Below, in pieces: positions 5,474-64,000 of a stretch of 64,000 nucleotides of DNA. Position 1 is the stretch's first letter; each line of letters starts with the position of its first letter. The position numbers were made by a program, and so were the translations under genes. The notes beneath the pieces are model-generated. The model was not told the DNA's origin. It worked only from the letters and a program-made list of their open reading frames with translations, and did no database searches. The stretch comes from Verrucomicrobiota bacterium (lineage in GTDB: Bacteria; Verrucomicrobiota; Verrucomicrobiia; Limisphaerales; JAFGQR01), in NCBI GenBank assembly GCA_016935555.1, contig JAFGQR010000011.1, positions 21,011 to 85,010 on the forward strand, written 5' to 3'.

Positions 5474-5902
5474 TCAATACACCGGCGCCGGCAGGGTCCG
5501 CCACTCCGCGACCTTGTTGTCCTGAAAGATCACCTCGGCACTGACATATTCCATCGGATAATACGACGTCGCCAGATACGGATGGCTCCAGACGTAGCCG
5601 CCGCCCACGTAGCTCTGATGCGTCCAATACCGATACGACTTCAGCCGGTTCCCCTGATACAGCCACGTCACCCACCTGCCTTGCGACGTCTCGTTGGTCA
5701 ATGCCTGCGCGGGCTTCCCCCACGCCATATACACCGCCTCCGGACTCATCCCGAGCTGCACCTCGCCCCGGTCCACCGCCGCCCGCAATTCGGGCGTCAG
5801 CCCGGCATAAACCGCCGCGTGCTCCCGCCGGCGTTTCTCGAGGGTGGAGGCACACCCGGCGGCGAATACCGCCAATGCCATGACCCATGCCACACGTTTC
5901 AT
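5474..5902 (-). CDS. Lipoprotein, function unknown (BamE/SmpA-like motif possible)
   Basis: An internal ATG gives MKRVAWVMALAVFAAGC, which is a signal peptide with a lipobox. The segment GMSPEAVYMAWGKP resembles SmpA/OmlA-type lipoproteins. The upstream part of track ORF 5474..6016 looks non-coding. Confidence 0.6.
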   Translation of the reverse strand: MKRVAWVMALAVFAAGCASTLEKRRREHAAVYAGLTPELRAAVDRGEVQLGMSPEAVYMAWGKPAQALTNETSQGRWVTWLYQGNRLKSYRYWTHQSYVGGGYVWSHPYLATSYYPMEYVSAEVIFQDNKVAEWRTLPAPVY

Positions 5903-6077
5903 GGCCCCATCCTCGCATGCCCCGGGCGCCGTGGAAAACCCAAAATCGCGCCCCGCCCTCCCTGGCCCCCCGGCGGCCCTGCCGCCGGCCCGGCACCGCG
6001 CACGGCCCGGGGGCACAAACCATTTGAACCGGGCAGCGGGCGGATTTAGACTGGCGCCCGCGATTGAACTTTCGAGT

Positions 6078-9549
<3,472 letters not shown>

Positions 9550-42716: not shown

Positions 42717-42740
42717 CGTGTTTGTTGTCGTGCCCCACCC

Positions 42741-43919
42741 ATGAAAAAGCTCTCCGACTGCCGTGTCCTGCTGGTGGACGACACCAAGGTGAACCTGGAC
42801 ATTCTCGTCGAGGGCCTGAAAAGCGATCACAAGCTGAGCCTGGCGCTGAATGGCGAAACCGCCTTGCAGATCGCCGCGCGAACCCCCCCCGATCTGGTGT
42901 TGCTGGATATCGTCATGCCGGGTCTGGACGGCTACGAAGTCTGCCGCCGCCTGCGCCAGATGCCGGAGACCGCCGACGTGCCGATCATGTTTCTGTCGTC
43001 GCTCGAAGAGGTGCAGAATAAGACGCGCGGGTTCGAGGTGGGAGCAAACGATTATCTCACCAAGCCGTTCGAAATGCTCGAGGTGAAGGCGCGCGTGCGT
43101 TCCCTGCTCAAGGCCAAGGCTTACAACGACGCGGTCAAGGAACACATGGCCGGCGAATTGCGTGTCGCCAGGGAAATCCAGATGGGAATGGTGCCCCGCG
43201 ATTTCGCGGCGGTGGAGGCGGCTTATCGGGTCGGCTTCGGTGCCGTGCTCGAGCCGGCTCGGGAAGTGGGCGGCGACCTTTATGGCATTTGCACGGCCGA
43301 CCCCGAGCGCCTGGTCATCTTCCTGGGCGATGTTTCCGGCAAGGGCATCCCGGCTTCGATGTTCATGGTGCGCGCCATCACCCTCGCCCGCCTGCTGGCG
43401 CGACAGACTGTGGAGCCGGAACGCATCCTGGCGCGGCTGAACGACGAACTCGCGGCCGACAACCCCTCATGCATGTTCGTGACGTTCCTCTGCGCCGTGT
43501 TTGAACCCCGGTCGCGCCGGTTCATCCTGGCCAACGCCGGCCATTGCTGGCCGGCGCTCCTTCCCGCACACGGCGCGCCGCGCTGGGTCGGCAAGAATCT
43601 CGGCACCGCCCTGGGTCTGGAACCCGGCCTCACGTTTCAGCGCGCCGAGCTGGCGCTGGGTGAAGGCGACGCTGTGATCTTCTACACCGACGGCGTGACC
43701 GAGGCCTTCAATCCCCAGGAGGCATTGTACGGCAGCGAACGCTTGCTGGCAGACGTCACGGCATTTGCCGGCCAACCCGCGCCGGCCATCACGGCTGGAA
43801 TCCTGCGGCAGGTTCGTGGGTTCGCCGCGGGCGCACCGCAATCCGATGACATCGCCATTCTCACCTTGAAAGTCGGCGGCGGGCGCGCAGACCCTTCCGG
43901 ACAGGAACCCCGCGCATGA
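42741..43919 (+). CDS. Response regulator with PP2C/SpoIIE-type Ser phosphatase output (RsbU-like)
   Basis: The REC domain reads VLLVDDTKVNLDIL...LLDIVMPGLDGYEV...DYLTKPF. The PP2C domain reads REIQMGMVPRDF...GGDLYG...FLGDVSGKGIPASMFM...FYTDGVTEA...DDIAILTLK. Confidence 0.9.
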   Translation: MKKLSDCRVLLVDDTKVNLDILVEGLKSDHKLSLALNGETALQIAARTPPDLVLLDIVMPGLDGYEVCRRLRQMPETADVPIMFLSSLEEVQNKTRGFEVGANDYLTKPFEMLEVKARVRSLLKAKAYNDAVKEHMAGELRVAREIQMGMVPRDFAAVEAAYRVGFGAVLEPAREVGGDLYGICTADPERLVIFLGDVSGKGIPASMFMVRAITLARLLARQTVEPERILARLNDELAADNPSCMFVTFLCAVFEPRSRRFILANAGHCWPALLPAHGAPRWVGKNLGTALGLEPGLTFQRAELALGEGDAVIFYTDGVTEAFNPQEALYGSERLLADVTAFAGQPAPAITAGILRQVRGFAAGAPQSDDIAILTLKVGGGRADPSGQEPRA

Positions 43920-44335
43920 AGCTGGAGTTGCGTGCCACGTTGGAGGAGGTCATGCGCGCCGTCGAAGCCCTGCGGGAATTCGCCAGCGCCCAGGGCGTTC
44001 CGGAAAAGACCACCCTCGGCCTGGCCCTGGCGCTCGAAGAGTGCGCCGCCAATATCGTCAATCACGCTTATCAACGCAGCGCCCAACAGCGCTTTCAAGT
44101 CCTCCTCGAACGGCATGACGACTCCCTGCTCATCGAACTGCGCGACCGCGGGCCGGAATTTGATCCCACCGCCGTGCCGCCACGCGACCAGCGAGCGATC
44201 GACCAAGACGGGCCGGGCGGCTGGGGCATCGACCTGGCGCGGCGTCACGTGGACGAGATTCGCTACCGGCGCGAAGCCGGGGAGAACATTCTGCGCCTGC
44301 ACAAGCGGCTTGTCGCGCCCGCCGGCCGGGCGTAA
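43916..44335 (+). CDS. RsbW/SpoIIAB-like anti-sigma-type serine protein kinase (HATPase_c_2)
   Basis: The start shares an ATGA overlap with the PP2C gene. It has an N-box (LEECAANIVNHAY), DRGPEFDP and a G-box (GGWGIDLARRHVDEI). Confidence 0.85.
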   Translation: MKLELRATLEEVMRAVEALREFASAQGVPEKTTLGLALALEECAANIVNHAYQRSAQQRFQVLLERHDDSLLIELRDRGPEFDPTAVPPRDQRAIDQDGPGGWGIDLARRHVDEIRYRREAGENILRLHKRLVAPAGRA

Positions 44336-44391
44336 CCTCCAACTCCAGTGTCAACCAAGTCCGACTGCCAAACCAAAGAGTCCAAACCCCC

Positions 44392-44778
44392 ATGCCACTC
44401 GACATTCAAATCCAAAAGAATCCCACCGGCGAGAACGCTGCCGCTCTGACCGTCACACTGATCGGCAGCCTCGACACCGTCACTGCGCCCGACCTGGAGC
44501 GCCAGCTTGCCCCCTGGCTGGGCGGTCCCGTCGCGGACATCGTCTTTGACCTGGCCCAGCTGAAATTCATCAGCAGCGCAGGCCTGCGCGTGTTCTCCGT
44601 CACGCGCAAGACGCTCAAGGAACGCGGGGGGCAGGCGTCGTTCCTGAACTTGCAGCCGCAGATCAGGGAAGTGTTTGACATCATCAAGGCCTTGCCCGGC
44701 GTGGCCATTTTCAAGGATGTCGCCGAACTGGACCGTTACCTGGCAGCGCGTCAACGCTCGCATCGGGAGGCGACCTAG
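44392..44778 (+). CDS. STAS-domain anti-sigma-factor antagonist (RsbV/SpoIIAA-like)
   Basis: The 128-aa protein carries DLAQLKFISSAGLRVF, with the conserved phosphorylatable Ser position. Confidence 0.9.
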   Translation: MPLDIQIQKNPTGENAAALTVTLIGSLDTVTAPDLERQLAPWLGGPVADIVFDLAQLKFISSAGLRVFSVTRKTLKERGGQASFLNLQPQIREVFDIIKALPGVAIFKDVAELDRYLAARQRSHREAT

Positions 44779-52151: not shown

Positions 52152-53645
52152 TCAGCTTTTCCCGGTCAGGTCCGTGGCCTTCATCCCGGCGAGTTGAGCA
52201 TAGTTTCGGAATTCGCGCTCCACGTCCCCCAGAATGAAGAGCTGGTGAAATCCGAGCACATCGCGCGTGTCTTTCACTCCGTCAAGGGCAACTTCGACGG
52301 AGGTGCGGCAGCCTCCGGCTTCCTCGTACGGGTCATGGCCCTGGGGATCGGGCTCGATGTTGCTCACGATCTTTCCCGCCCCGACGCGAATCGTGTCGTA
52401 GTGGCCGCTGGGTATCTCCATCACCGTCATGCGTTCACCCACCGGCCAGAGCACCTGGGTCGCAACGCCGCGGTCCGGTTCCTGGTGGCTTCGCAGGATA
52501 AATGGCATCGGCGGTTTGTCGAATCCCGCCAGTCTCGTGGCGCACGCGCAGTGGGCGCCCCCGAGGGTATTGTTGACCGTCAGAGGAAAGGGATCCTGTT
52601 GAAAACCGGGCCGTTGCACCAGCAAGTGGGTGAGCCGCGAACTGAGTGCCGCGTGTTCATCCGCTTCACACGCCGCCACGATCCCTTCGTCGCGCAACCG
52701 TGAAAAGGCAAGGCAGGGCTCCCACAGATGACCTTTGGAACCGATCGGCCGTGAGACCAACGGCAGGCAGTTTATCGAAATCCCATCGCACTTCTCCTCC
52801 TCCATCAGTGCACGCAGCACCACGTAGATGTTGGCCGCGTTCAGCACGTCTTCCCCGGTCGGTTCGATGATCGCCTTGGCGTTCTTCTGATAGTAATCGG
52901 CTATGGCCCGGACCTTCTCCGTGACGACGCTTTTATGCGCCATGTCGCACAGGGCCTGTTCCGGGTAGTCAAGCAGTTTCGTGCCCAGATGCTCCACGGT
53001 CTTCTCAGCCTTCTTATTGCCCTTTACGATCAGCAAACGCGTCTGCTTCATCCGCCACACGCTGTTCAGCATCCGCAAGCCGTGGGCCAGCCAGTTTTCG
53101 TGTTGGAAGGCACTCACAAAGACGCCGGCAATGCCGCGCGTTGCTTGGAGGTGGCCCGTGAACGAAGTGCCGACAGGACTGAAGAGAATGGTGGGTATGT
53201 TGCCACGTTCCTTTGCGATGCGGTTGAGGTGGGGCCACGCTTGATTGAGGCTCATTGCGGTGACAATGAGGCCGTCGGGATTCTCCTCTTGGACGGTCTT
53301 CAGGAACGCGGTAACGGCGTTTTCATCCTTCAGCGGCTCCTGCGTAAGACGCAGATCCACCCCCAGGTCTTTCGCCGCGCCCCGCAATATCCGGGTGTAG
53401 TGCTCTTGATGGACCGCGTTGTCCCAATCGGCTCCCGGCCACCCCATGAAGTAGCGGTTCTGATCCGGCCGGGCAAATCCGGCCCGCACCACGGGTTTGC
53501 CGCCCGGCGGAGACGCGGCAAACATCGACGAAGCAACCTCAAACAAGTCCAAGTGCGCCGCGGTGGCCGCCGCACCGGCCGTGGTCAGGAACTTCCGCCG
53601 GCTCATCGGACATCCCAAACATTTCATTCCGTTTCGCGTTTTCAT
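52152..53645 (-). CDS. TAT-signal protein with sugar-isomerase (FucI/AraA)-like features (tentative)
   Basis: It carries a twin-arginine motif (MSRRKFLTTAGAAATAAHL). The C-terminal half has isomerase-like segments (CDGISINCLP...GIVAACEADEHAAL). Start options are 53684, 53645, 53627 and 53606. Confidence 0.55.
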   Translation of the reverse strand: MKTRNGMKCLGCPMSRRKFLTTAGAAATAAHLDLFEVASSMFAASPPGGKPVVRAGFARPDQNRYFMGWPGADWDNAVHQEHYTRILRGAAKDLGVDLRLTQEPLKDENAVTAFLKTVQEENPDGLIVTAMSLNQAWPHLNRIAKERGNIPTILFSPVGTSFTGHLQATRGIAGVFVSAFQHENWLAHGLRMLNSVWRMKQTRLLIVKGNKKAEKTVEHLGTKLLDYPEQALCDMAHKSVVTEKVRAIADYYQKNAKAIIEPTGEDVLNAANIYVVLRALMEEEKCDGISINCLPLVSRPIGSKGHLWEPCLAFSRLRDEGIVAACEADEHAALSSRLTHLLVQRPGFQQDPFPLTVNNTLGGAHCACATRLAGFDKPPMPFILRSHQEPDRGVATQVLWPVGERMTVMEIPSGHYDTIRVGAGKIVSNIEPDPQGHDPYEEAGGCRTSVEVALDGVKDTRDVLGFHQLFILGDVEREFRNYAQLAGMKATDLTGKS

Positions 53646-54002
53646 GATGATCCCTTTCGCTGATGGAAAGTCTGATTCCCGCACACGAAACCGAGCCTAA
53701 CATTGGCCGAATGGTAAATCAAGAGGCTAACGACCCACCCCTGTTCAAGGGGCGCATCGCAGTGTTTGGCGTAGTGCGCCCCGGTTGTGAAGGGCATCGC
53801 ATGCCACTGCGAACCAAGCAGGTTGCGCGAGAATGGGTGGTTCCTCACGCCGTATGGCCCCGTTCTCAGGCCCGAAAGGCGAACCACGGTCAAGCCACAG
53901 GGGAATTGGTTCGCTTCGGCCAGGCTTATGCTAATCTGCAGTTGCATCTTGCAGTTGCCGTCTTTGGACCATGGTCGCCATCTGCAGCCGGCGGGGGGGG
54001 GA

Positions 54003-54815
54003 TTAGACGTAGGTCTTCTCCAACAACGCAGCTGCACTTTCGTCGAGCATTTCCCGCCGGCGCATTTCCTCAAAGCGCGCAAGCAAATCCGGCACACGAA
54101 GGCGCTGTTTGTCGGCTCCTTCGAACCGACAGGCCACGGCGCCGCGATGCACCATTACGATGCGGTCGCCAAGGTTGACGGCTTGCTGCATGGAGTGGGT
54201 GACCATGAGCGTGGTGAGCTTGTGCCGGCTGACGATGTCTGCAGTGGCACGAATAAGCAGATCGGCGCTCTTGGGATCCAGCGCGGCAGTGTGTTCGTCC
54301 AAGAGCAGCAATGCTGGCTTGAGCCATGTGGCCATCAGTAGCGTGAGCGCCTGGCGCTGACCGCCGGAGAGACTGCCGATGGCGTTGCCGAGCCGGTCTT
54401 CCAAACCCATTCGCAATTCTCGGACGCGGTCGCGGAGTTCGTCCATGAGTCTTCTGGAGAGCGCCCAGCCCAGGCCGCGTCCCTGGCCGCGACGGGCGGC
54501 GAGGGCGAAGTTCTCGGCGATGGACATGTTCGGTGCGGTGCCGGTGAAAGGGTTCTGGAACACGCGACCGATCAGCCGCGCCCGCCGATGTTCCGGCCAG
54601 CGCGTGATGTTCTCTCCGGCCAGTTCGATCTTGCCTTGGTCGAGTTGAAACGTGCCGGCGACGGCGTTCAACAAAGTGGATTTGCCAGAACCGTTGCCAC
54701 CGAGGATGATCAGGAACGCGCCTTCCGGAATGGTGAGGCTGACTCCGCGCAGCGCGCGGACCTCGTTCACAGTACCCGCGTTGAAAGTTTTGCAGATGTT
54801 GGAGACAGTAAGCAT
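54003..54815 (-). CDS. ABC transporter ATP-binding protein (COG1101-type, partner of COG4120/COG2984 systems)
   Basis: It has Walker A (GGNGSGKSTLL), the signature motif (LSGGQRQALTLLMA), Walker B (LLLLDEHTAALD) and an H-loop (MVTHS). Confidence 0.9.
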   Translation of the reverse strand: MLTVSNICKTFNAGTVNEVRALRGVSLTIPEGAFLIILGGNGSGKSTLLNAVAGTFQLDQGKIELAGENITRWPEHRRARLIGRVFQNPFTGTAPNMSIAENFALAARRGQGRGLGWALSRRLMDELRDRVRELRMGLEDRLGNAIGSLSGGQRQALTLLMATWLKPALLLLDEHTAALDPKSADLLIRATADIVSRHKLTTLMVTHSMQQAVNLGDRIVMVHRGAVACRFEGADKQRLRVPDLLARFEEMRRREMLDESAAALLEKTYV

Positions 54816-54824
54816 GGCGTCCCT

Positions 54825-55769
54825 TTACGACTGACTCTGTGGTTTGGCGAGCGTCGCGGCCCTTTTCCGGCGTTGCAGCAACTGCGGCAACACCAGCGCG
54901 GCAAACACAAACAAGGCCGTGACCAGTTTGAGATCGTTGGGGTTCAATCCCCAGCGCAATGCGATGGCCACGAGCAGACGGAACAGAACCGAGCCGGCGA
55001 CTGCTCCGTAAATCGCCAGCCCCAGACTGCGCGAGCCGGTGAGCGACTCGCCGATGATGACGCTGGCCAGTCCCCAGACGACCATGCCGATTCCCATCTG
55101 TGCGTCGGCGAAGCCTTGGTACTGGGCCAACAAGCCGCCGGCCAGTGCGACGAGGCCGTTGGACAGCGCCAAACCCATGATGCAATAACGTTGAACGTTG
55201 ACGCCAAGCGCGCGGATCATCTGCGGATTGTCACCCGACGCACGCATCGCAGTGCCGAGTTCTGTTCGGAAGAACCAATACAACACCAGGCAGGCTGCGA
55301 CGATCAGGCTGATTACGATCAGCAGCATGGCCAGATCGCGCGCACCGACCAGCCAACCCATCACGTTCACCTCTGGCGCGCGGAACCATGAGTGGCCCAG
55401 CCGCTCCGCCCATTTGGTGGAACTGTCCGCCCCCAGCAACGGCACGTTGCTCTTGCCCATGACGTGCAGGTTCACCGAGTAAAGGCCGGTCATGACCAAA
55501 ATGCCCGCCAGCAGGGAATTGATGTTGAACTTCGTATGCAACACACCAGTCACCGCGCCCGCCACGAGTCCGCCGCCAAATCCGGCGAGTGTGGCGAACA
55601 ACGGATTGACATGCTTGATCAACAACACCGCGCAGATGGCAGCGCCCAACGTGATCGAGCCGTCCACGGTGATGTCAGCGATGCCAAAGACGCGGTAACT
55701 GATGTAGATCCCCAGCGCCAGGAGCGACAGGATCAATCCGATGGTTAATGCTCCGAGCAACAAAGTCAT
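54825..55769 (-). CDS. ABC transporter permease (COG4120-type)
   Basis: The 314-aa polytopic protein begins MTLLLGALTIGLILSLLALGIYISYRVFGIADITVDGSITLGAA, which is typical of this permease family. Confidence 0.9.
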   Translation of the reverse strand: MTLLLGALTIGLILSLLALGIYISYRVFGIADITVDGSITLGAAICAVLLIKHVNPLFATLAGFGGGLVAGAVTGVLHTKFNINSLLAGILVMTGLYSVNLHVMGKSNVPLLGADSSTKWAERLGHSWFRAPEVNVMGWLVGARDLAMLLIVISLIVAACLVLYWFFRTELGTAMRASGDNPQMIRALGVNVQRYCIMGLALSNGLVALAGGLLAQYQGFADAQMGIGMVVWGLASVIIGESLTGSRSLGLAIYGAVAGSVLFRLLVAIALRWGLNPNDLKLVTALFVFAALVLPQLLQRRKRAATLAKPQSQS

Positions 55770-55781
55770 AAGCGGATTGGG

Positions 55782-57032
55782 TCACGTCACCAGCGGCGCG
55801 CACCAGCAGGCGCCGCGAAAGAAACAACTCTCGCCAGCGCCGTTGGGGTCGCGCCAATCGTTCAGCAGATGCAGCACGCCCAGCACGTGCTCGCTTTCAA
55901 ACAGCGGCTCGAGTGATTCCGCCAAGCTCACCTTGCCTTTGCGGAGCGGACGATACGGGAAGGCCGCCGCGTGGAAGTGGCCGCAGATGTCGCCCGTGAG
56001 GACCAGCGGTTTAAGCAATCGCGGATGCAACGCACGTGAGCCGGTGGCTGCGAGGCCGACGATGAGGCTGACGGAATTGGCGAACGCCGCTTCAGCGGTG
56101 AAGCTCAACCAGTCACGCACCTCCGGGAAGGCAAAAAGGTTTCGCGCACCGGTGACTACTGGCGGGCTGGCAGGCGTCTTTTGCAGCGACGCGCCCACCA
56201 GTGAAGCCGTCTCCGCCAACATGACGATGCCTGCCGCGTCGGTGTTTGCAGCGTCGAGACAGGCTTTGATCACGGCGCTCAAGGTCAGACTGGATTGCTC
56301 CGGGCCTTTGTCGAATCGCAGCAGCCGCGCAAAACCACCACGGCAAACAACGCCGTAGGCGACCTTCACCGTCGGCGTCAGCGCGCCTTGAAGCAGCATG
56401 TAATCCGGCTTGTTGGCACCGTCAGCTGGCTGGCAAACGACGGCACCGCCTGCGCCGAGAAATTCACCGAATGCCGCGCCTTCCAGGTCGCTGGTCGAAG
56501 CGAAAGCGCCAAGGCCGAGACCGATTGTATCCGCAGCAAACGCGACGTTTTCACAGTCGGCGTCCTTCGCGGTGCCTTCAAGCCACGCTGCTGAATCTCC
56601 GGGCCATTGAACGCGGAGCGTCGCGCCGGGGTTCAACTCGAACAGTTGCGCTGTTGCGCCCGCTGGCGGCAGCGCGACGTGCTGGGTGGGTCGTTCGGGC
56701 GCTGCCGTTGCCATTACTCTTGCCGTGTCTTCGCCAACGTGAAGCCGCGTCTCCAGGCCCACCAGCTTCAAGACACTGCGCACAGCGCTCGACGCCCTGG
56801 CGATGATGAGCCGCCCTTGAATGGCGTTGAGCTGACGCGAGTGCAGCACGAGAATCCGGATGCCGGCGGAGCTGAGGTAGTCCACGTCCATCATGTCAAG
56901 CGCGATGACGTGGTAGCCGGCGCGCACCGATTCGGTCAGGGCATTGGCGACGTGGTCGCTCCAGACGGCGTCCATGCGGCCTTTGAGCTTCAGGTCGAGT
57001 TGATCGTCGCGTGCTGTGCGAGTGATTTCCAT
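55782..57032 (-). CDS. STAS-domain protein fused to a ~300-aa C-terminal domain of unknown function, encoded inside the ABC operon
   Basis: The N-terminal ~105 aa are STAS (LDLKLKGRMDAVWSDHV...ALDMMDVDYLSSAGIRILVLHSRQL...SAVRSVLKLVGL). I cannot assign the remainder (...GAFASTSDLEGAAFGEFLGAGGAVVCQPADG...GHFHAAAFPYRPL...) to any family. Confidence 0.8.
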   Translation of the reverse strand: MEITRTARDDQLDLKLKGRMDAVWSDHVANALTESVRAGYHVIALDMMDVDYLSSAGIRILVLHSRQLNAIQGRLIIARASSAVRSVLKLVGLETRLHVGEDTARVMATAAPERPTQHVALPPAGATAQLFELNPGATLRVQWPGDSAAWLEGTAKDADCENVAFAADTIGLGLGAFASTSDLEGAAFGEFLGAGGAVVCQPADGANKPDYMLLQGALTPTVKVAYGVVCRGGFARLLRFDKGPEQSSLTLSAVIKACLDAANTDAAGIVMLAETASLVGASLQKTPASPPVVTGARNLFAFPEVRDWLSFTAEAAFANSVSLIVGLAATGSRALHPRLLKPLVLTGDICGHFHAAAFPYRPLRKGKVSLAESLEPLFESEHVLGVLHLLNDWRDPNGAGESCFFRGACWCAPLVT

Positions 57033-57043
57033 GAGCAGCGTGG

Positions 57044-60001
57044 TTAGGGTTTGGTCGGGTCGGAGATTTCTTGCGCCTGCCGCAACAGCTCATCCGGGAT
57101 GGTGATGCGAACCGCTTGGGCGTTCCTCGCGTTCACCAGCGTCTGCACCTTACGCGGTGGAGAGAACGGAATTCGCGCCGGACTCTCTCCGCGTATCAGG
57201 GCAGCGACTTTAAACGCAGTCTCTCGTCCGGCGTCGTAATAGTCGCGGGCCAGTGCCACGGCGGCGCCCTGTTTGACGCCGGCCCCGTGGCAACTGAACA
57301 GCGGCAACCGCGCTTGTTCCGTGGCGCGCGCGATGATGGGGAAGCCAGCGACCGAAAGGTTGTCAATGATCTGAACCACGGCATCCAGCCGGCGGCCGCA
57401 CAGTGACAGCGCCGCGTCGGCCAACTCCCCCGCGCAGTTGGCCGCGACGGTTTCCACCGTTAATCCGCAACGAACGGCTTCGCGGACGAACATTTCCTTG
57501 TTCGCCACGGAGTTTGCCTCCGCCGGACAAAACAGCGTTCCGACGTGCTTGAACTGAGGGAAATATGTTCGCAACAACTCCGCCATTTCCCGGTACGGCC
57601 CGAGTGTGTAAACGCCCGTGATGTTCGGCAGATGGTCCTGATCCGATTGGCCCGCGCCCGCGACGAACGGGTCGGCCACGACCGTGAACACGATGGGCGT
57701 GTCACGAACCTTCTGTATACCGGCTTGGAGTGCCGGCGTGCCATAGACGACATAGAGGTCCACACCTGCCGTCTTGGCGGAATCATAAAGCGAGCTGATT
57801 GCCGCCATGTCACCTTGGGCTGACAACGTTTTCATCGTGAAGTTCACCCCGTCCTTCAAACCCGCCTCCTTCAAACCGTCCGTCAGCCCGCGCATGGCGT
57901 CCTCGACCATGACGGATTCGATGTAGGAAAGCTGCTGGATCCGCCACTTTCTTGCCGGTGGTTGCGCGACGGGTGGGGCCGGCGGCTTTTCGAGCGTTTG
58001 CATGGCCAGCACCGCAGGCGGGAAGGTGACGCCCAGTTTGCGTGCGACGTCCATGTTCAGGATCACCTTCTCGTCGCTCACGTTTCGCATCGGAATTCTC
58101 GCGGGCTCCTCGCCTTGAAGCACGCGAGCGAGCGGTTCGGCAGCGGCGAAACCAGCCGCGTAGTAGCCAACACCCACCACGGCCAGCGCGCCGCGATTGC
58201 AAAAGTCCGGCGAGTCAATGACCACCGGAATGCGCGTGGTGGCGAGTTGGCCGGCGAGGCCGTCGAACGCCTGGTAAGCCGTGTTGTCGCCGGGGATATA
58301 CACCGCTTCCACACGCCGGGCAGCGAGCGATTGCGCAGCTTGCACCACCTCGCTCGTATTGTTCGCAATGGCCTCGACCAGTTCGACGCCGTGCTTCGGG
58401 CACAACTCCCGCAGCACCGTGACCACCTTCACCGAGTTGGCCTCGGCGTTGTTGTAGAGCGTCCCGAGCCGTCGGAATGTCGGGAACGTGAGCTTTAACA
58501 TCGTGACCGCTTTCTCAATGGGCGGGAACGAGCCGATCCCGGTGACGAACGGCAGGTGATCCTCGAAGCTCTTGCCCGCGCCGGCGGCAATCGGATCCGT
58601 GCAGTAAGTGAAAACGACGGGTTTGTGGCGCACGCCAGCGCAAGCGGCCGTCAGCACGGGCGTCGAAAACGTGGAGATCACGTCCGCGTCGCTTGCGTCG
58701 AGTGACTGCAGCATCGCCGGGATGCTGCCAATCTCGCCGTTGGCATGCATCTTCTGAACCTCAAGATTTTGTCCTTCGACAACACCGAGCTTTCGCAGTC
58801 CATCCATCAGTCCAGCAATGGTGCTGTCCGTGCCTTCGTCAGGACCAAAGTAAGCGATGCCGATTTTGAACGGGCGGCCGGATTTGGAAACAACCGGACG
58901 CGGCTTGCTCTGGGTGGCGACGGACGCGGTTTGGTGGACATCTTTTTCCACGTTGCCGTCTTCTCCGAGGATGAGTGCAGCGCGGGCACGCAGATCGTCG
59001 GTAAACCGCCACGGGTCGCGAAGGTTCTTGAGAACTTGTTTGTTCAACATCAGGTGCTCGGGCATGAAGTTGGTGATGACCAGCGTGGCGGAGTCGACGC
59101 CGCCAAGGATCCCGGCGGCAATGTCGCCCACCACTTCGCCAACTTCAAAGTAGTTTGCGCCGAGATCGAAAAGTGAGCCGTCGCGTACGTTGCCCGAAGT
59201 GTTGGAAAAGACGGGAATCCTGGCCCGGCTCGCCGAGCCGGTGAGCGCAGTGATCGCGTTGAGCACCGTCACATCCGCGCCCGCCCAGAAGGCCTGCGCG
59301 CCGCGCGCCACCAGCGAATCCGCGGCTTCGCGCACGTCCTTGCTCTGGTCCACGTTGGCTTCGAGCAACTGGATGCCCAGTTCCTTGCAGACCTTCCGGG
59401 CTTTGGCGGTGCAGACCTCGGAATTGGCTTCAGCGGGGTTCCAAACGACTCCGACGACTTTCAGGTCGGGCCACTGCCGCCTGGCTTCGCGCAAAATCGA
59501 TTCCACCGGTTGGAACGTGCCGACGCCGGCCAGCCACGGCGGTTTGTTGGTGGAATTCATTTGCCGGATGCCGACGCCCGCGGCGGCGGGATCCGTCACG
59601 CCGCCGAAAACATGAATGGCGCGGCCATCCTTGTTGGCGTTGGCCACGCATTGGAGCGAAAGAGTGCTGATGGAGATCACCATCTTGAAACTGCCGTCGG
59701 TAACGCGCTTGGCTATGGTGTTGGCCGTCGGCAGATCGCCCTCGGCGCTGAACCGTTGCAGGGCGATGCGTCCACCGTCCTCGTAACCGGCGGCGGCGAG
59801 CCGAGCCAGAATGCCGCGCTCCACTTCATCCAGCAACGCGATTGAAGCGTGCTTGAGAATGGCGACGGGAATCTTCGCCTGCGCCGACAACGCGCCATTG
59901 CGCGCCCTTTCACGCGAATGGAGGTCCGACAATAGCAGCGTCAACGCCGCCGCCACGAGCAGGACCAGCGACAGGAAAACACGGCTAAAAACTTGTTTCA
60001 T
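57044..60001 (-). CDS. Membrane-anchored ABC substrate-binding protein with three tandem COG2984/PF04392-type domains
   Basis: The start is set at MKQVFSRVFLSLVLLVAAALTLLL (TM anchor). Three homologous modules each contain a TDP-AAG-G box and a PAEANS box. Module 1: VFGGVTDPAAAGVG...VWNPAEANSEV. Module 2: VVFTYCTDPIAAGAG...LYNNAEANSVK. Module 3: IVFTVVADPFVAGAG...LFCPAEANSVA. Confidence 0.85.
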   Translation of the reverse strand: MKQVFSRVFLSLVLLVAAALTLLLSDLHSRERARNGALSAQAKIPVAILKHASIALLDEVERGILARLAAAGYEDGGRIALQRFSAEGDLPTANTIAKRVTDGSFKMVISISTLSLQCVANANKDGRAIHVFGGVTDPAAAGVGIRQMNSTNKPPWLAGVGTFQPVESILREARRQWPDLKVVGVVWNPAEANSEVCTAKARKVCKELGIQLLEANVDQSKDVREAADSLVARGAQAFWAGADVTVLNAITALTGSASRARIPVFSNTSGNVRDGSLFDLGANYFEVGEVVGDIAAGILGGVDSATLVITNFMPEHLMLNKQVLKNLRDPWRFTDDLRARAALILGEDGNVEKDVHQTASVATQSKPRPVVSKSGRPFKIGIAYFGPDEGTDSTIAGLMDGLRKLGVVEGQNLEVQKMHANGEIGSIPAMLQSLDASDADVISTFSTPVLTAACAGVRHKPVVFTYCTDPIAAGAGKSFEDHLPFVTGIGSFPPIEKAVTMLKLTFPTFRRLGTLYNNAEANSVKVVTVLRELCPKHGVELVEAIANNTSEVVQAAQSLAARRVEAVYIPGDNTAYQAFDGLAGQLATTRIPVVIDSPDFCNRGALAVVGVGYYAAGFAAAEPLARVLQGEEPARIPMRNVSDEKVILNMDVARKLGVTFPPAVLAMQTLEKPPAPPVAQPPARKWRIQQLSYIESVMVEDAMRGLTDGLKEAGLKDGVNFTMKTLSAQGDMAAISSLYDSAKTAGVDLYVVYGTPALQAGIQKVRDTPIVFTVVADPFVAGAGQSDQDHLPNITGVYTLGPYREMAELLRTYFPQFKHVGTLFCPAEANSVANKEMFVREAVRCGLTVETVAANCAGELADAALSLCGRRLDAVVQIIDNLSVAGFPIIARATEQARLPLFSCHGAGVKQGAAVALARDYYDAGRETAFKVAALIRGESPARIPFSPPRKVQTLVNARNAQAVRITIPDELLRQAQEISDPTKP

Positions 60002-60198: not shown

Positions 60199-60531
60199 AT
60201 GGAAACTCAGAACTTGGCTAACGCAACTGTCGTAAAACTGATCGAACGAATTGATTCGGTCTCGTCCCGGGAGGTTGAAGCCACTCTCCAAAACATCATT
60301 GTCGGCGGAGCACGCAATGTCATCTGCGACTTCGCGGCGGCCAAATACATCTCCAGCGCGGGACTGCGCGTGTTGTTGGTCGTGGCCAAGACGCTCAAAA
60401 AGGGCGGGGGGCAGTTGCTCATCGTGTGCGCCAGGACCGGATATGTTTATGAGGTCTTGGAAACGGCCGGTTTCACCAGCATGATCCCGGTGTTCGCATC
60501 CGTCGCCGAAGCCACTCAGGCGGCCAAGTGA
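60199..60531 (+). CDS. Single-domain STAS anti-sigma-factor-antagonist-like protein
   Basis: The 110-aa protein carries DFAAAKYISSAGLRVLLVVAKTLKKGGGQ. This closely parallels the STAS protein at 44392 (DLAQLKFISSAGLRVFSVTRKTLKERGGQ). Confidence 0.85.
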   Translation: METQNLANATVVKLIERIDSVSSREVEATLQNIIVGGARNVICDFAAAKYISSAGLRVLLVVAKTLKKGGGQLLIVCARTGYVYEVLETAGFTSMIPVFASVAEATQAAK

Positions 60532-60550: not shown

Positions 60551-61015
60551 ATGAAAACCACCGTCGCTGATGTCATTTTGAAGTTCCTGGAAGCCGAGGG
60601 TGTGGAGTACTTGTTCGGGATTCCGGGCACAACCATAGTGCCGTTGCTGGACGCCACGAACCGCAATAAAGCCGTCCGGCCCATCCTGACCAAGCATGAG
60701 GAAGGCGCGGCTTTCATGGCGGACGGCTACGCGCGGGTCAAATGTGGGATCGGGGCTTGTTTCGCGACCTCCGGTCCCGGCGCCACCAATCTGGTGAGCG
60801 GCGTGGCCAATGCTTACATGGACAATGTGCCGATTCTCGTCATGACCGGCCAAGTCGAGACATCCCTCTATGGCAAGGGCGCGTTCCAGGATTCGTCCAA
60901 AGCCGGCGTTGATGCGGTCAAAATGTTTGATCGTCAGACTATTGATCGAATACTCAAAGGAGACTTGACCAGACATCGGACTTCAATCCATATGCGCATC
61001 CACAAGACACCGTGA
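60551..61015 (+). pseudogene. Truncated thiamine-diphosphate enzyme (acetolactate-synthase-like), N-terminal TPP_enzyme_N domain only
   Basis: The sequence VADVILKFLEAEGVEYLFGIPGTTIVPLLDA...HEEGAAFMADGYARV...ATSGPGATNLVSGVANAYMDNVPILVMTGQV is the N-terminal Pyr domain. Similarity stops near 60930, where GC drops, and a stop codon follows at 61013-61015. Confidence 0.6.
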
Positions 61016-61130
61016 AATGGGAAGCTAGGCCACCATCATGGCGTGTGGAAGAATGGCACAACCAGTCGTGGGAGCTAACTGCGTTTCGCTCCGCTCCACA
61101 GAGTCGCTCCACTGGAGGTTCGATGACAAA

Positions 61131-61448
61131 ATGGTGAAAAGAATCCTGACGCAATATTTCAGTACTTGGTGGTTACCTGCATTTGTGTACACCTGCTTTT
61201 TTAGCGGCTACACGATCACAGCGATTCTGCGATGGAAGCCGCTAGGCTTTGTTGCCAATGTGCTGTTCTGCATGGCAGTGGCAGGGTTTTTGGGACTGAT
61301 TGCCGCATGCACATGGAACCTGACGAAGAAAGGATCGGGTAAAGGTATCATCAATCTCTTTCTCATCCTGGGCTGTGGTGCGGCCACGTTCTTCACCTTT
61401 GGCCTTCTGATGTTTGCCTGCACGGGTTCCGGTTCGCGCCCTTTTTGA
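61131..61448 (+). CDS. Hypothetical small membrane protein
   Basis: Starting at MVKRILTQYFSTWW, it has 3 predicted hydrophobic helices. It sits in low-GC context with no recognisable family. Confidence 0.35.
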   Translation: MVKRILTQYFSTWWLPAFVYTCFFSGYTITAILRWKPLGFVANVLFCMAVAGFLGLIAACTWNLTKKGSGKGIINLFLILGCGAATFFTFGLLMFACTGSGSRPF

Positions 61449-61572
61449 CAATCTCGAAGATGGCGCGACTGTGGGCGAGTTTCTGGAGTGGTTCCCAGGC
61501 GTCACTCGGGCTCAGGTGGAGGCCGTGCTCGAACACGCCTCGGCGAGCCTTGCCACCGAAGCGCTTGGATGA
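61414..61572 (+). pseudogene. 5'-truncated DUF433-like antitoxin fragment
   Basis: My translation gives ...ARVPVRALFDNLEDGATVGEFLEWFPGVTRAQVEAVLEHASASL. It resembles the C-terminal two-thirds of DUF433 proteins. The frame opens only at 61411 and overlaps the preceding membrane ORF. Confidence 0.4.
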
Positions 61573-61886
61573 AGATCTTTTTTGACCAAGGCACGCCCCT
61601 CCCGTTGCGGCGGCATCTCCATCCCCATGAGGTGGATAGTGCTGCAGAGCGTGGCTGGTCAACACTGCAAAATGGGGAGCTGCTGGACCAGGCCGAGGGT
61701 GCCGGATATGAGGCGTTTATCACGCCCGACCAGCATCTCCGACACCAACAGCATCTGGTGGGACGGCGGATTCGAGTGATGGTGTTGATGACGACTTCAT
61801 GGCCTCGAATGCAGCGGAGGGTGGGAGAGATGCGCACCATGCTCGAGAGGCTCGCGGAGGGAGGTTATGTGGAAGGCACCTTTTAG
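61569..61886 (+). CDS. PIN-like (DUF5615-type) putative toxin
   Basis: MKIFFDQGTPLPLRRHL...LQNGELLDQAEGAGYEAFITPDQHL resembles DUF5615/Mut7-C-like partners of DUF433. It shares an ATGA overlap with the upstream fragment. The family was recalled from memory. Confidence 0.45.
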   Translation: MKIFFDQGTPLPLRRHLHPHEVDSAAERGWSTLQNGELLDQAEGAGYEAFITPDQHLRHQQHLVGRRIRVMVLMTTSWPRMQRRVGEMRTMLERLAEGGYVEGTF

Positions 61887-62611
61887 AGGCTGATCTGCTT
61901 CGCTGGGCCCAATGTTGAAGAGTTCGATCGTGCTTCGGGTGTATACGGGACGTTGTTCGCGCGATTCTCGCGATTGGTCAGCTTGCCACCGAACTGCGCT
62001 CACCAGCGGGGCGGATTATCAGGACTCCTCCGAGCTGTCGCGGGTGACGGGGTGAAAGTTGCGCGCACAAATTGGGGTCACGTCTGGACAATAGATTCTG
62101 ATGAAATGCCTTAGGTTTTTCATCAGAATCAACATTCAACATTCTGGTCGTATGCTGCGCTGGCGTCGGCTCTGCTGCTGGTGGGCGGTCTGGGATTGGG
62201 CGGGGTGCTGTGGCAGCGGCGGCAGTCCGTGCGCAAGGAGCAGCGGGCATTGGCCATGGTCCAGCAGATGCGGATGCAGCAAGCCGAGGCGCGATACCAG
62301 ATTGAGCCTTCGGATCCGCTGGACCCGGAGACGTTCTACGAACAGCGCCGTGCGCTAACGCTTCTGCACAGCGTGTTGGACCGGCTGCAGGCGGAATTCG
62401 CCGCCGCGGGTCGCCGCTAATGCGCCGCGACAGCGGACAGTGCTCGACGGCACGCGCCTGCCTCTTCCATCCTCCGAGCCTCCACAGGTGCCACCGGAGT
62501 TGCTGTTCAGTGACGACTCGGGGGCGCGCCTCGTGTCGGCCCGCCTGTGCAAAAACTCTGTACCAACAGTTCTTTGGCGAATTGGGTATTTATATAAGTT
62601 CTTGTGGGAGC

Positions 62612-62688
62612 TGGTCGGGGCGGTGCGATTCGAACGCACGACCTTCTGAACCCCATTCAGACGCGCTACCAGGCTACGCTACGCCCCG
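62612..62688 (-). tRNA. tRNA-Pro (anticodon GGG), CCA encoded
   Basis: The manual cloverleaf has an acceptor stem CGGGGCG/CGCCCCG, a D-arm GCGT/GCGC with AGCCTGGTA and an anticodon stem TCTGA/TCAGA. The anticodon loop is A-U-GGG-G-U. The T-arm is GTGCG-TTCGAAT-CGCAC, followed by discriminator A and CCA. Total length is 77 nt. Confidence 0.9.
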
Positions 62689-62749
62689 ACCGAAAACGCC
62701 CGGTGAAACGCCGGGCACGACCCCACCGTATCGCGCCGGCGGGGGAAGT

Positions 62750-64000
62750 TCAACCCTTTTCGTTGAGGACCTTGACGAAAACCGCGGTGAGGTCGTCCTC
62801 CTGGGGGCAATCCCCGGCAAACTCGCGCACGGCCTGATAGAGCAGCTTGACGAGGGTTTGGGCGGGCTCGTGGCGTTTGGCGCGGACGAGGTCGAGCATG
62901 CGTTCGGTGCCGAACAACTCGTCGCGGGCATTGACGCTTTCCTCGATGCCGTCGGTGGACAGCAGGAGGATATCGCCCGGTTTGAGGGGCAGTTCGGGGG
63001 AGGAGCGGTAGGTGGTGTCGGGGTGGAGTCCGAGCGGCATGCCGCTGGGGGCCAGCCGGTGCTTGACGTGACCGTCGCTGCCGATGAGGTGGGCTGGCGG
63101 GTGGCCGGCGCTGGCGTAAATCAGGGTGCGGTTTTTGGGGTCGAGAGCGGCCCAGAAGAGGGTGATGTAGCGTTCGCGGCCGACGTCTTCGGCGAGGACG
63201 GCGTTGGCCACGCTGAGGATTTCGCCGGGATCATCGCGGCGTTTGCTCACCAGCCGCAGGTAAGCCCGCGTCTCCGCCATCAGCATCGCCGGTCCCACCC
63301 CGTGGCCGGTCACGTCGCCGACGACGATGCCGAGGCGTCCGCGGAGCATGGGCAGGTAATCGAAGTAATCGCCCCCGGTGGCTTCGGTGGGGTAGGAGGT
63401 GCCGCTGATGTCGAAGCCTTTGAGTGCGGGAGCGCTTTTGGGAAAGAGATGCTGCTGGATTTCGCGGGCGACACGGAACTGTTCCTGGTGGTCGCGCAGT
63501 TCCCGTTCGGCGCGTTTGCGTTCGGTGATGTCGCGGACGAACCCGACGAAGCGGCGTTCGCCATCGAGGATCATGTCGCTGTAGCTGACCTCGATGGGGA
63601 TTTGGGCGCCGTCCTTGCGCAAGCCGACGGTTTCGGTGGCGCGCCAGTTCATGCGTTTGATGCCGGTTTGGAGGTAGCGGGTGATGCCGGTGCGGTGGCT
63701 GCCGCGCAGCCGTTCGGGCTGGAGCATGGTCAGGTCGCTGCCAATGAGTTCCTCCGGCGCGTAGCCGAACACGTCGCGCACCGCCGGGTTCACGAACAGG
63801 ATCCGGCCCTCCGGGTTCATGAGGATGACGGCGTCCGGGCAGGTTTCCCACAGCAGGCGGTAGCGCTGTTCGCTTTCGCGCAGGGCTTTCTTGGCGTCGC
63901 GCTGGCTGGCGCGGATGGAGGCTTCGCGCAGTTCGCGTTCCACGGCGGGGACCAGCCGGTTCAAGTTGCCTTTCATCAGGTAATCGTGGGCGCCGGCCTT
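62750..64000 (-). CDS. REC-PAS-PP2C (SpoIIE-type) phosphatase response regulator (N-terminus beyond right edge)
   Basis: It has a PAS domain (YRLLWETCPDAVILMNPEGRILFVNPAV...VRDITERKRAE) and a PP2C domain (REIQQHLFP...GGDYFDY...VGDVTGHGVGPAMLM...STDGIEES...DDLTAVFVKV). The reverse complement of 63961-64000 reads KAGAHDYLMKGNLN, which is the end of a receiver domain. Confidence 0.85.
   Translation of the reverse strand, partial: KAGAHDYLMKGNLNRLVPAVERELREASIRASQRDAKKALRESEQRYRLLWETCPDAVILMNPEGRILFVNPAVRDVFGYAPEELIGSDLTMLQPERLRGSHRTGITRYLQTGIKRMNWRATETVGLRKDGAQIPIEVSYSDMILDGERRFVGFVRDITERKRAERELRDHQEQFRVAREIQQHLFPKSAPALKGFDISGTSYPTEATGGDYFDYLPMLRGRLGIVVGDVTGHGVGPAMLMAETRAYLRLVSKRRDDPGEILSVANAVLAEDVGRERYITLFWAALDPKNRTLIYASAGHPPAHLIGSDGHVKHRLAPSGMPLGLHPDTTYRSSPELPLKPGDILLLSTDGIEESVNARDELFGTERMLDLVRAKRHEPAQTLVKLLYQAVREFAGDCPQEDDLTAVFVKVLNEKG

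Follow-up and report, generated by a model that had tools for sequence, protein, structure and literature searches.

The window analysed here, a 64,000-nucleotide (nt) stretch from a Verrucomicrobiota bacterium (GenBank assembly GCA_016935555.1, contig JAFGQR010000011.1, positions 21,011 to 85,010), carries within an ATP-binding cassette (ABC) importer operon a gene for a protein that we call STAS-X, in which an N-terminal STAS domain is followed by a domain predicted to have the fold of acetolactate decarboxylase (ALDC). Our analysis suggests that a STAS-ALDC-fold protein inside the operon of an importer dependent on a substrate-binding protein (SBP) is new, although the kinds of system that it recalls, MlaB and partner switching, are already known. 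In open-access papers and preprints we found no description of the arrangement or of a STAS-ALDC fusion, in keeping with the original prediction, which was made from the sequence of the window and held the arrangement to be undescribed. The gene context suggests a previously undescribed wiring of nutrient uptake to partner-switching signalling. Tentatively, we propose for STAS-X the role of an accessory, regulatory subunit on the cytoplasmic side of a TrpXYZ-type importer, through which uptake would be linked both to a small metabolite and to a phospho-relay of the partner-switching kind.

STAS-X is encoded within an importer operon

STAS-X is specified by an open reading frame (ORF) on the minus strand with an ATG start, and is tightly packed between its neighbours. 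A gap of 11 nt (57033-57043) separates it from the stop of the SBP gene, whose ORF ends at 57044, and 12 nt (55770-55781) separate it from the permease gene, which starts at 55769; permease and ATPase genes are 9 nt apart. The protein is cytoplasmic, without a signal peptide, and the codon-position GC content of its gene (GC3 0.73 vs GC2 0.50) is like that of the neighbouring genes. With a PF04392 SBP, a BPD_transp_2 permease and an ABC_tran ATPase together, the host operon qualifies as TrpXYZ-type (PF04392 / COG4120 / COG1101). The original prediction had described a 416-residue ORF with these two gaps, these three neighbours and, at 43916..44335, an RsbW-like kinase; the ORF coordinates and the domain searches, which assign the last to HATPase_c_2, bear it out on each point.

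Features of the operon
54003..54815, minus strand: ABC ATPase (ABC_tran, Pfam), 270 residues, as in every relative inspected
54825..55769, minus strand: ABC permease (BPD_transp_2, Pfam)
55782..57032, minus strand: STAS-X gene, 416 residues (ORF; more than 120 full-length homologues at 55-83% identity)
55785..56684, minus strand: C-terminal domain, residues ~117-416, predicted ALDC / C11orf54 (DUF1907) fold (AlphaFold2 (AF2) model and Foldseek)
55869-55871, minus strand: H388, conserved polar residue
55971..55979, minus strand: H352-F-H354, candidate metal ligands on a beta strand (conservation)
56463-56465, minus strand: E190, conserved polar residue
56730..57032, minus strand: STAS domain, residues 1-101, SpoIIAA/RsbV type (PF01740, TIGR00377, Foldseek)
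56868..56870, minus strand: codon of Ser55, aligned with SpoIIAA Ser58 and MlaB Thr52
57044..60001, minus strand: SBP, probably 985 residues from the ATG at 60001 (three PF04392 domains; the homologue at locus L001 has 984 residues)

The permease of the window is 42-48% identical to permeases from canonical SBP-permease-ATPase operons. Its SBP has an N-terminal hydrophobic anchor followed by three tandem PF04392 domains (Pfam, E 2.8e-144) at about 59021-59827, 57992-58891 and 57083-57904. The TrpX model NF041285 gives this protein 446.8 bits against a cut-off of 390, but this is a sum across the three domains, which makes an assignment of substrate from it unreliable. In the sequence ahead of the SBP genes, Rfam detected neither a riboswitch nor a leader that might hint at a substrate, and a scan for promoters and terminators returned background level only.

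The four-gene core is invariant

The association was followed through 53 non-redundant loci, 50 of them from GTDB species representatives and the others from metagenome contigs, which share 38-83% identity; counts were taken where the flanks suffice. The genome census used alignment A1 and is biased toward members that retain the motifs FPY[RHQ]PLRKG and LLHLLNDWR. A PF04392 SBP gene lies directly upstream of STAS-X in 47/47 testable loci, the permease gene directly downstream in 53/53, and the ATPase gene downstream in 45/45. All loci of the set share the gene order SBP, STAS-X, permease, ATPase, and the intergenic gaps in the core are 3-15 nt, with the exception of a gap of 125 nt between STAS-X and permease in L007. 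Two members at only 32-33% identity, checked separately from the census, have the identical four-gene core with a single-domain SBP; a third distant member lies on a 3-kb contig whose flanking genes are unannotated. Conservation beside the ABC genes had been set beforehand as a test of the original prediction, and these counts, with the two distant members, uphold it. As a control, homologous proteobacterial importers run SBP-permease-ATPase with nothing in between. STAS-X therefore represents a lineage-specific insertion into an importer operon that canonically has three genes, and synteny could not tie it to the transporter more strongly.

The family is large. A phmmer search of 1.84 billion representative sequences with the C-terminal domain returned 747 clusters (50% identity), 335 of them below 1e-30. 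Nearly all matches are in proteins of ~410 residues and begin near residue 110-130, so that the combination of STAS and C-terminal domain is a fixed architecture. The shorter members (283-342 residues) mostly begin within the STAS domain or lie on tiny contigs, and no convincing free-standing C-terminal domain was found among them. The hosts are Verrucomicrobiota (Verrucomicrobiia, Opitutae, Chthoniobacteraceae and the cultured Prosthecobacter fluviatilis KACC 12649, locus L036) and Planctomycetota. Single metagenome-assembled genomes labelled as Binatia, Delta- or Alphaproteobacteria also carry STAS-X, and these might be binning errors. The C-terminal domain had no match in 72,556 plasmid records.

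The SBP partner varies in size, with one to five tandem PF04392 domains: 22 loci have two, 14 have three and five have only one, whilst four domains and five domains each occur in a single locus (besides the window, examples are L040:1239-6254 and L059:6988-7998). SBPs that combine several domains with a membrane anchor are in themselves unusual. All-against-all clustering of the neighbourhood ORFs, to which high-GC antisense ORFs add noise, revealed nothing else that is universal, and the only components to recur were SBP, STAS-X, permease, ATPase, STAS/kinase and PP2C. Comparison of the ATPases reveals group-specific residues in the helical subdomain and the tail, from which we conclude nothing because only two canonical controls were included.

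The STAS domain is of the SpoIIAA/RsbV type

Residues 8-99 match the Pfam STAS family (PF01740) with an E-value of 1.9e-12 and 47.3 bits against a cut-off of 22.6, and the anti-sigma-factor antagonist model TIGR00377 is passed narrowly (54.9 vs 53.45). A profile of the family run against PDB sequences finds SpoIIAA at 9e-17, the MlaB-like chain 7ch8_K at 1e-4 and RsbS only at E 0.12. The nearest solved relatives of the domain are SpoIIAA and RsbV, to which Foldseek gives a TM-score (normalised to target) of 0.8. When the protein is aligned by phmmer with Bacillus subtilis SpoIIAA, the segment 'dvdylSSagiril' stands opposite 'dlsfmDSSglgvil', pairing Ser55 with Ser58 (SpoIIAA residue numbers were counted by hand from its sequence). 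Thus the N-terminal STAS domain with a phosphorylatable serine, claimed from the outset, is recovered by both family models and by the alignment. The position is a serine in 248/248 family members, including those from lineages without a nearby kinase. In MlaB, T52 maps to the phosphoserine position of SpoIIAA (PMC5016091).

The C-terminal domain resembles acetolactate decarboxylase in its predicted fold

The C-terminal ~300 residues match no Pfam family even at E 10, and no NCBIfam model. A profile built from 61 family sequences retrieves STAS chains only from the PDB sequences, with none for this domain. The domain was modelled with AF2 from a diverse alignment (pLDDT 92.7, pTM 0.92). When this model was compared with the PDB by Foldseek, the top match was human C11orf54/PTD012 (1xcr; E 2e-6, TM 0.48), together with seven ALDC entries at E 4e-6 to 2.5e-4 and a TM-score (normalised to target) of 0.55-0.67. 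All of these have a probability of 1.00, and nothing further appears until E 0.02. The model therefore predicts the Zn-decarboxylase fold of ALDC and C11orf54. The earlier statement that this region matches nothing holds for sequence, in both the Pfam and the PDB profile searches, and fails at the level of fold; the expectation that the domain falls in no housekeeping family by sequence stands, since Pfam has no match and the family profile finds only STAS chains.

C11orf54 is a Zn-dependent beta-keto-L-gulonate decarboxylase whose H266/H268/H278 site superposes on that of ALDC; in both enzymes Zn is bound by an HxH motif plus a third histidine (PMC12337341). In the 61-sequence alignment A2, which reaches down to 29% identity, H352, H354, D392 and R394 of STAS-X are invariant, and H388, E190, E274, R306 and E314 are kept at 90% or more. 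H388, which follows an insertion of ~25 residues, is a candidate substitute for the third ligand. The Zn site of ALDC has the form His-x-His-x(10)-His, with a catalytic Glu/Arg, and H352, H354, H388 and E190 may be the structural counterparts of the Zn ligands and the catalytic glutamate of this fold. At the level of sequence families, neither PF03306 nor TIGR01252 takes in the C-terminal domain, although its modelled fold agrees with theirs; there is likewise no sequence match to DUF1907, and the spacing of the putative ligands differs from that of H266/H268/H278. Aligning the domain profile with a small ALDC alignment by hhalign gave no match in global mode and, in local mode, a weak match of 21 columns, GEFLGAGGAVVCQPADG against ALDC GELIGFDGEFYRLRSDG (P 0.067), which is at most suggestive of homology to ALDC.

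Partner-switching genes accompany most loci

An RsbW-like HATPase_c_2 kinase, a single-domain STAS protein and a SpoIIE-family PP2C phosphatase are all encoded within 10 kb of the operon in 26 of the 33 loci that have at least 5 kb on both sides. The gene immediately after the ATPase gene, on the same strand, is a partner-switching gene in 29/41 loci, encoding a STAS protein in 11, a kinase-STAS fusion in 14 and a kinase in four; in L004 the STAS gene overlaps the ATPase stop by 4 nt. The fusion, with HATPase_c_2 N-terminal and STAS C-terminal, is found in P. fluviatilis (L036:12837-13727, confirmed by Pfam), where a convergent cNMP-HAMP-PP2C gene follows, and in 13 further Verrucomicrobiaceae loci. 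Where the kinase is fused to its own STAS domain, the alternative partner should be another STAS protein, for which STAS-X is the obvious candidate. The module is otherwise constant, but the sensor domain of its PP2C varies (PAS, dCache-HAMP, a receiver near Che genes, or cNMP), as one would expect if the input enters through the phosphatase. The Pfam families annotated in the neighbourhoods include none of sigma factors.

Two arrangements hint at further inputs. In L001 (13521-20454), a relative with 63% identity, a small STAS gene follows the ATPase gene, and beyond it lie a convergent REC-PP2C gene and genes for CheB, CheA, CheW, CheR and CheW, a cluster that suggests chemosensory input to the switch. 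In L004 (3883-6883) and L007 (5013-7920) a gene for an NMT1-family SBP overlaps the start of the dCache-HAMP-PP2C gene immediately upstream of the importer SBP gene, which may represent a binding-protein-assisted input to the phosphatase.

Acetolactate genes adjoin some loci

In three planctomycete loci (L019, L022 and L023) a STAS-RsbW-AlsS operon abuts the ABC operon on one side or the other. The AlsS proteins score 756-766 bits against a cut-off of 510 and are genuine catabolic acetolactate synthases. In L019 alsD, identified by TIGR01252 (222.8 bits, cut-off 180.65), begins 18 nt past the ATPase gene; in L022 the ABC operon lies between alsD and alsS; in L023 alsD and alsS are convergent and adjoin the SBP gene. 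The alsD genes and STAS-RsbW-AlsS operons together lie at L019:13040-16531, L022:2-334 and 5698-8483, and L023:3-2717. Besides these loci, each with alsS and alsD, two verrucomicrobial loci have an acetolactate-synthase-like gene and the window has a truncated one. In a literature search we found no description of a partner-switching pair co-transcribed with a catabolic acetolactate synthase. The als association is a non-trivial coincidence with the ALDC fold predicted for the C-terminal domain. Furthermore, the als loci already encode a canonical AlsD, so that a second catalytic ALDC is less likely and a sensor paralogue more likely; the association thus speaks more for an ALDC-derived sensor, responsive to alpha-acetolactate or a similar acid, than for a further decarboxylase with catalytic activity.

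Other features of the window

The window has partner-switching genes of its own, on both sides of the operon.

Partner-switching and flanking genes of the window
37881-42716, plus strand: hybrid histidine kinase, 1611 residues (dCache-HAMP-GAF-PAS-HisKA-HATPase-2xREC-Hpt), preceding the REC-PP2C gene
42741-43919, plus strand: response-regulator-PP2C
43916-44335, plus strand: RsbW-like Ser kinase (HATPase_c_2), the sole kinase of this type in the window
44392-44778, plus strand: STAS protein, following the RsbW-like kinase
60199..60531, plus strand: single-domain STAS protein, 110 residues, motif YISSAGLR, divergent from the SBP gene (Pfam/NCBIfam)
60551..61015, plus strand: 5′ part of a truncated thiamine diphosphate (ThDP) enzyme gene, 154 residues, TPP_enzyme_N only
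62750..63976, minus strand: PAS-PP2C (SpoIIE family) phosphatase

The genes at 37881-44778 form a complete module of hybrid kinase, response-regulator-PP2C, RsbW-like kinase and STAS ~9 kb beyond the ATPase gene, and look like a two-component input into a partner switch. The STAS protein of this module is the closest relative in the window (37-49% identity) of the STAS that follows the ATPase gene elsewhere, whether free-standing or as part of the L036 fusion. On the SBP side, the orthologues of the STAS gene at 60199..60531 in L013 and L056 (76-81% identity) adjoin an RsbW-like kinase gene that is missing from the window locus. The ORF next to it, 60551..61015, is the 5′ part of an acetolactate-synthase-like ThDP enzyme that is intact in L013 (4108-5829; 573 residues) and in L056; no remainder of this gene is detectable within the window. 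From its gene content, the window locus is a partly eroded version of the module.

Between the truncated ThDP gene and a tRNA-Pro(GGG) gene (62612-62688, minus strand), the stretch 61015-62750 has a GC content of 0.56 vs ~0.65 and holds two small ORFs, 61038-61448 (membrane-like) and 61488-61886, neither with a Pfam match. An insertion or deletion at the tRNA gene, of which this stretch would be what is left, may have eroded the kinase/ThDP operon. On the other side, 318 nt downstream of the ATPase gene, an ORF at 52152-53684 (minus strand) encodes a protein of 510 residues with a twin-arginine-like signal (RRKFLTTAGAAATAA) and no Pfam family; it has a faint match to sulfoquinovose isomerase (E 6e-6, far below cut-off) and no counterpart in the other loci. 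A thiamine pyrophosphate (TPP) riboswitch (Rfam RF00059, 59 bits vs 54.3) lies at 7415-7549 (plus strand) within a crude ORF call of 7108-9549, where the gene start probably lies downstream of the riboswitch.

Discussion

In its genomic logic STAS-X is most like MlaB. Both are cytoplasmic STAS proteins encoded within an ABC transporter operon, with a conserved serine or threonine at the SpoIIAA phosphosite, and they are weakly but genuinely alike in structure and in profile searches (6xbd_K, 7ch8). We know of no kinase or phosphatase dedicated to MlaB, and phosphorylation of MlaB has only been hypothesised (PMC5016091). The differences are considerable: MlaB is a single domain of ~100 residues that serves an MCE-type, exporter-like system without an SBP, whereas STAS-X has 416 residues with an ALDC-fold domain, belongs with an SBP-dependent BPD_transp_2 importer and is nearer to SpoIIAA/RsbV. 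With the SpoIIAA/RsbV and RsbW/RsbU systems it shares the TIGR00377 subfamily, the phosphorylatable serine and, in most loci, a co-encoded RsbW-like HATPase_c_2 kinase and PP2C; unlike those antagonists it is fused to a 300-residue domain and lies in a transporter operon, its modules contain two STAS proteins and no listed sigma-factor family, and in Verrucomicrobiaceae the kinase is itself fused to a STAS domain.

Partner switching does not always end on a sigma factor, as the Pseudomonas SiaABCD system illustrates. Other such outputs are type III secretion, controlled by Bordetella BtrUWV, and biofilm formation, controlled by Vibrio SypE/SypA (PMC8256260). All of these are STAS/Ser kinase/PP2C modules acting on non-sigma targets, and none of the reviewed cases targets an ABC importer or uses a STAS domain fused to a decarboxylase-fold domain. 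The stressosome proteins RsbR and YtvA also combine a sensor domain fused to STAS with a small STAS protein, a Ser kinase and a PP2C; their STAS domain is C-terminal and of the RsbR/RsbS type, and the STAS-X neighbourhoods show no stressosome genes. We have rejected a stressosome reading because the STAS domain of STAS-X is N-terminal and RsbV-like, with RsbS reached only at E 0.12.

The C-terminal domain shares with ALDC (AlsD/BudA, PF03306) and C11orf54 a two-lobed fold in the model, an HxH motif on a strand and a conserved glutamate in a 'GE' motif, and with ALDC also the genomic association with alsS/alsD in some loci. It differs in sequence-family membership, in the third histidine, which is not at +9/+10, and in its fusion to STAS. 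A functional parallel to the role proposed here is offered by the importer ATPases MalK, MetN, ModC and NrtC, whose C-terminal regulatory domains mediate trans-inhibition: STAS-X would likewise be a cytoplasmic ligand-sensing module that throttles an importer according to the level of an intracellular metabolite. There the module is part of the ATPase itself and not a phospho-regulated STAS, whereas STAS-X is a separate polypeptide.

The original prediction suggested that the protein may gate or report on the transporter. In the mechanism that we propose, the unphosphorylated face of the STAS domain around Ser55 would dock on the ATPase and tune ATP hydrolysis and import, like MlaB on MlaF. 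We suggest this face because the equivalent position, T52, is required in MlaB: the T52A change abolishes the ATPase activity of MlaFEB, whilst assembly is unaffected (PMC5016091). The RsbW-like kinase would phosphorylate or sequester STAS-X, the PP2C would reverse the phosphorylation on receiving its own input (through a PAS, dCache, receiver or cNMP domain), and the small STAS protein would compete for the kinase. The ALDC-like domain would bind an alpha-hydroxy/beta-keto-acid ligand such as alpha-acetolactate, so that metabolic state feeds back on uptake. A bolder version is possible but doubtful, in which STAS-X belongs to a class of regulatory importer subunit not recognised before, a STAS domain plus an ALDC-derived sensor, with a dedicated partner switch (RsbW-type kinase, second STAS, sensor-PP2C) that acts directly on the transporter and not on a sigma factor, and with alpha-acetolactate or a related keto-acid as the feedback ligand.

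Several observations weigh against a regulatory subunit of this kind. The sequence of the STAS domain is far nearer to the anti-sigma antagonists (9e-17) than to MlaB (1e-4). The ATPase has no conspicuous extra docking element, and is only six residues longer than the two canonical controls in alignment A3. STAS-X has no histidine 9-10 residues past the HxH, where ALDC and C11orf54 have their third Zn ligand, and als genes stand beside only ~6/54 loci. Finally, no kinase is adjacent in five of the 33 well-flanked loci, which have none of the three partner-switching components within 10 kb, in the two distant members, and in part at the window locus. The last point suggests that phospho-control of STAS-X may be lineage-specific or encoded elsewhere. 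The proposal of partner-switching control made in the original prediction gains strong genomic support from the family (26/33 and 29/41 loci), but the copy that prompted it has lost the adjacent kinase of its relatives.

The flow of information might run in the opposite sense, with STAS-X reading the state of the transporter, or the arriving substrate via its ALDC-like domain, and signalling to the RsbW-like kinase for an output elsewhere (AlsS/acetoin, a sigma factor or the chemosensory system). The parts list is the same as that of modules built from a sensor-STAS, a small STAS, a kinase and a PP2C, the STAS-RsbW-AlsS operon adjoins the ABC operon in L019, L022 and L023, Che genes adjoin the module in L001, and SBPs with one to five domains would suit a broad sensing antenna. 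In the distant members, however, the four-gene core persists although no partner-switching gene lies within 8 kb, which implies that the constant partner of STAS-X is the transporter and not the kinase. The variable sensor domains of the PP2C already supply inputs, and clustering of the neighbourhood ORFs gave no conserved output gene. On balance we consider such transport-coupled sensing unlikely. Much of the same material could be read as the trace of an enzyme, with the C-terminal domain as a catalytically active, Zn-dependent decarboxylase of beta-keto acids that works on the imported compound at the transporter, and with STAS only regulating or tethering it. Both structural relatives are Zn decarboxylases, H352, H354, H388, E190, R306, D392 and R394 are conserved, and there is the weak local motif match to ALDC. 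Set against these are the absence of PF03306 or DUF1907 membership by sequence, the non-significant P-value of that match and the different spacing of the third histidine. In addition, the als loci have a canonical AlsD of their own, whose gene in L019 comes straight after that for the ATPase, and an invariant phospho-site serine with a co-encoded kinase and phosphatase would be unusual for a plain catabolic enzyme. A catalytic role in this sense is slightly less likely still.

It is very improbable that STAS-X is an ordinary anti-anti-sigma factor that frees a sigma factor encoded elsewhere and sits in the ABC operon for co-expression only. Its passing of the TIGR00377 cut-off, its nearest solved relatives and the nearby RsbW-like proteins are what such a factor would show, but the annotated neighbourhoods list no sigma-factor family, the position between SBP and permease is invariant over deep divergence, the extra domain of 300 residues is conserved, and single-domain STAS proteins able to do the job are already present in the same loci. 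Chance adjacency or a mis-called ORF is refuted by the codon-position GC content, the full-length homologues, which number more than 120, and the synteny (47/47, 53/53 and 45/45).

In conclusion, we have shown that STAS-X occupies an invariant place in the operon of an SBP-dependent importer, and we favour, tentatively, its role as a regulatory subunit of that importer. The known means of controlling ABC importers are transcription, the C-terminal domains of their own ATPases, and proteins of the phosphotransferase system (PTS) or PII type. If the proposal is correct, this class of transporter would have a further, new layer of control, in which a dedicated partner switch based on Ser phosphorylation operates via a STAS protein that is a subunit in its own right. 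Bacteria of the Planctomycetes-Verrucomicrobia-Chlamydiae (PVC) group encode many partner-switching proteins, and for most of them we know of no identified target; the STAS-X module provides a defined candidate. The role of the ALDC/C11orf54 fold would extend from catalysis to probable sensing, and STAS-X would give a concrete case for the old speculation that MlaB-like STAS proteins are regulated by phosphorylation (PMC5016091). The family is abundant, invariant in its organisation and present in the cultured P. fluviatilis, which makes experiments on this wiring of uptake to signalling feasible.

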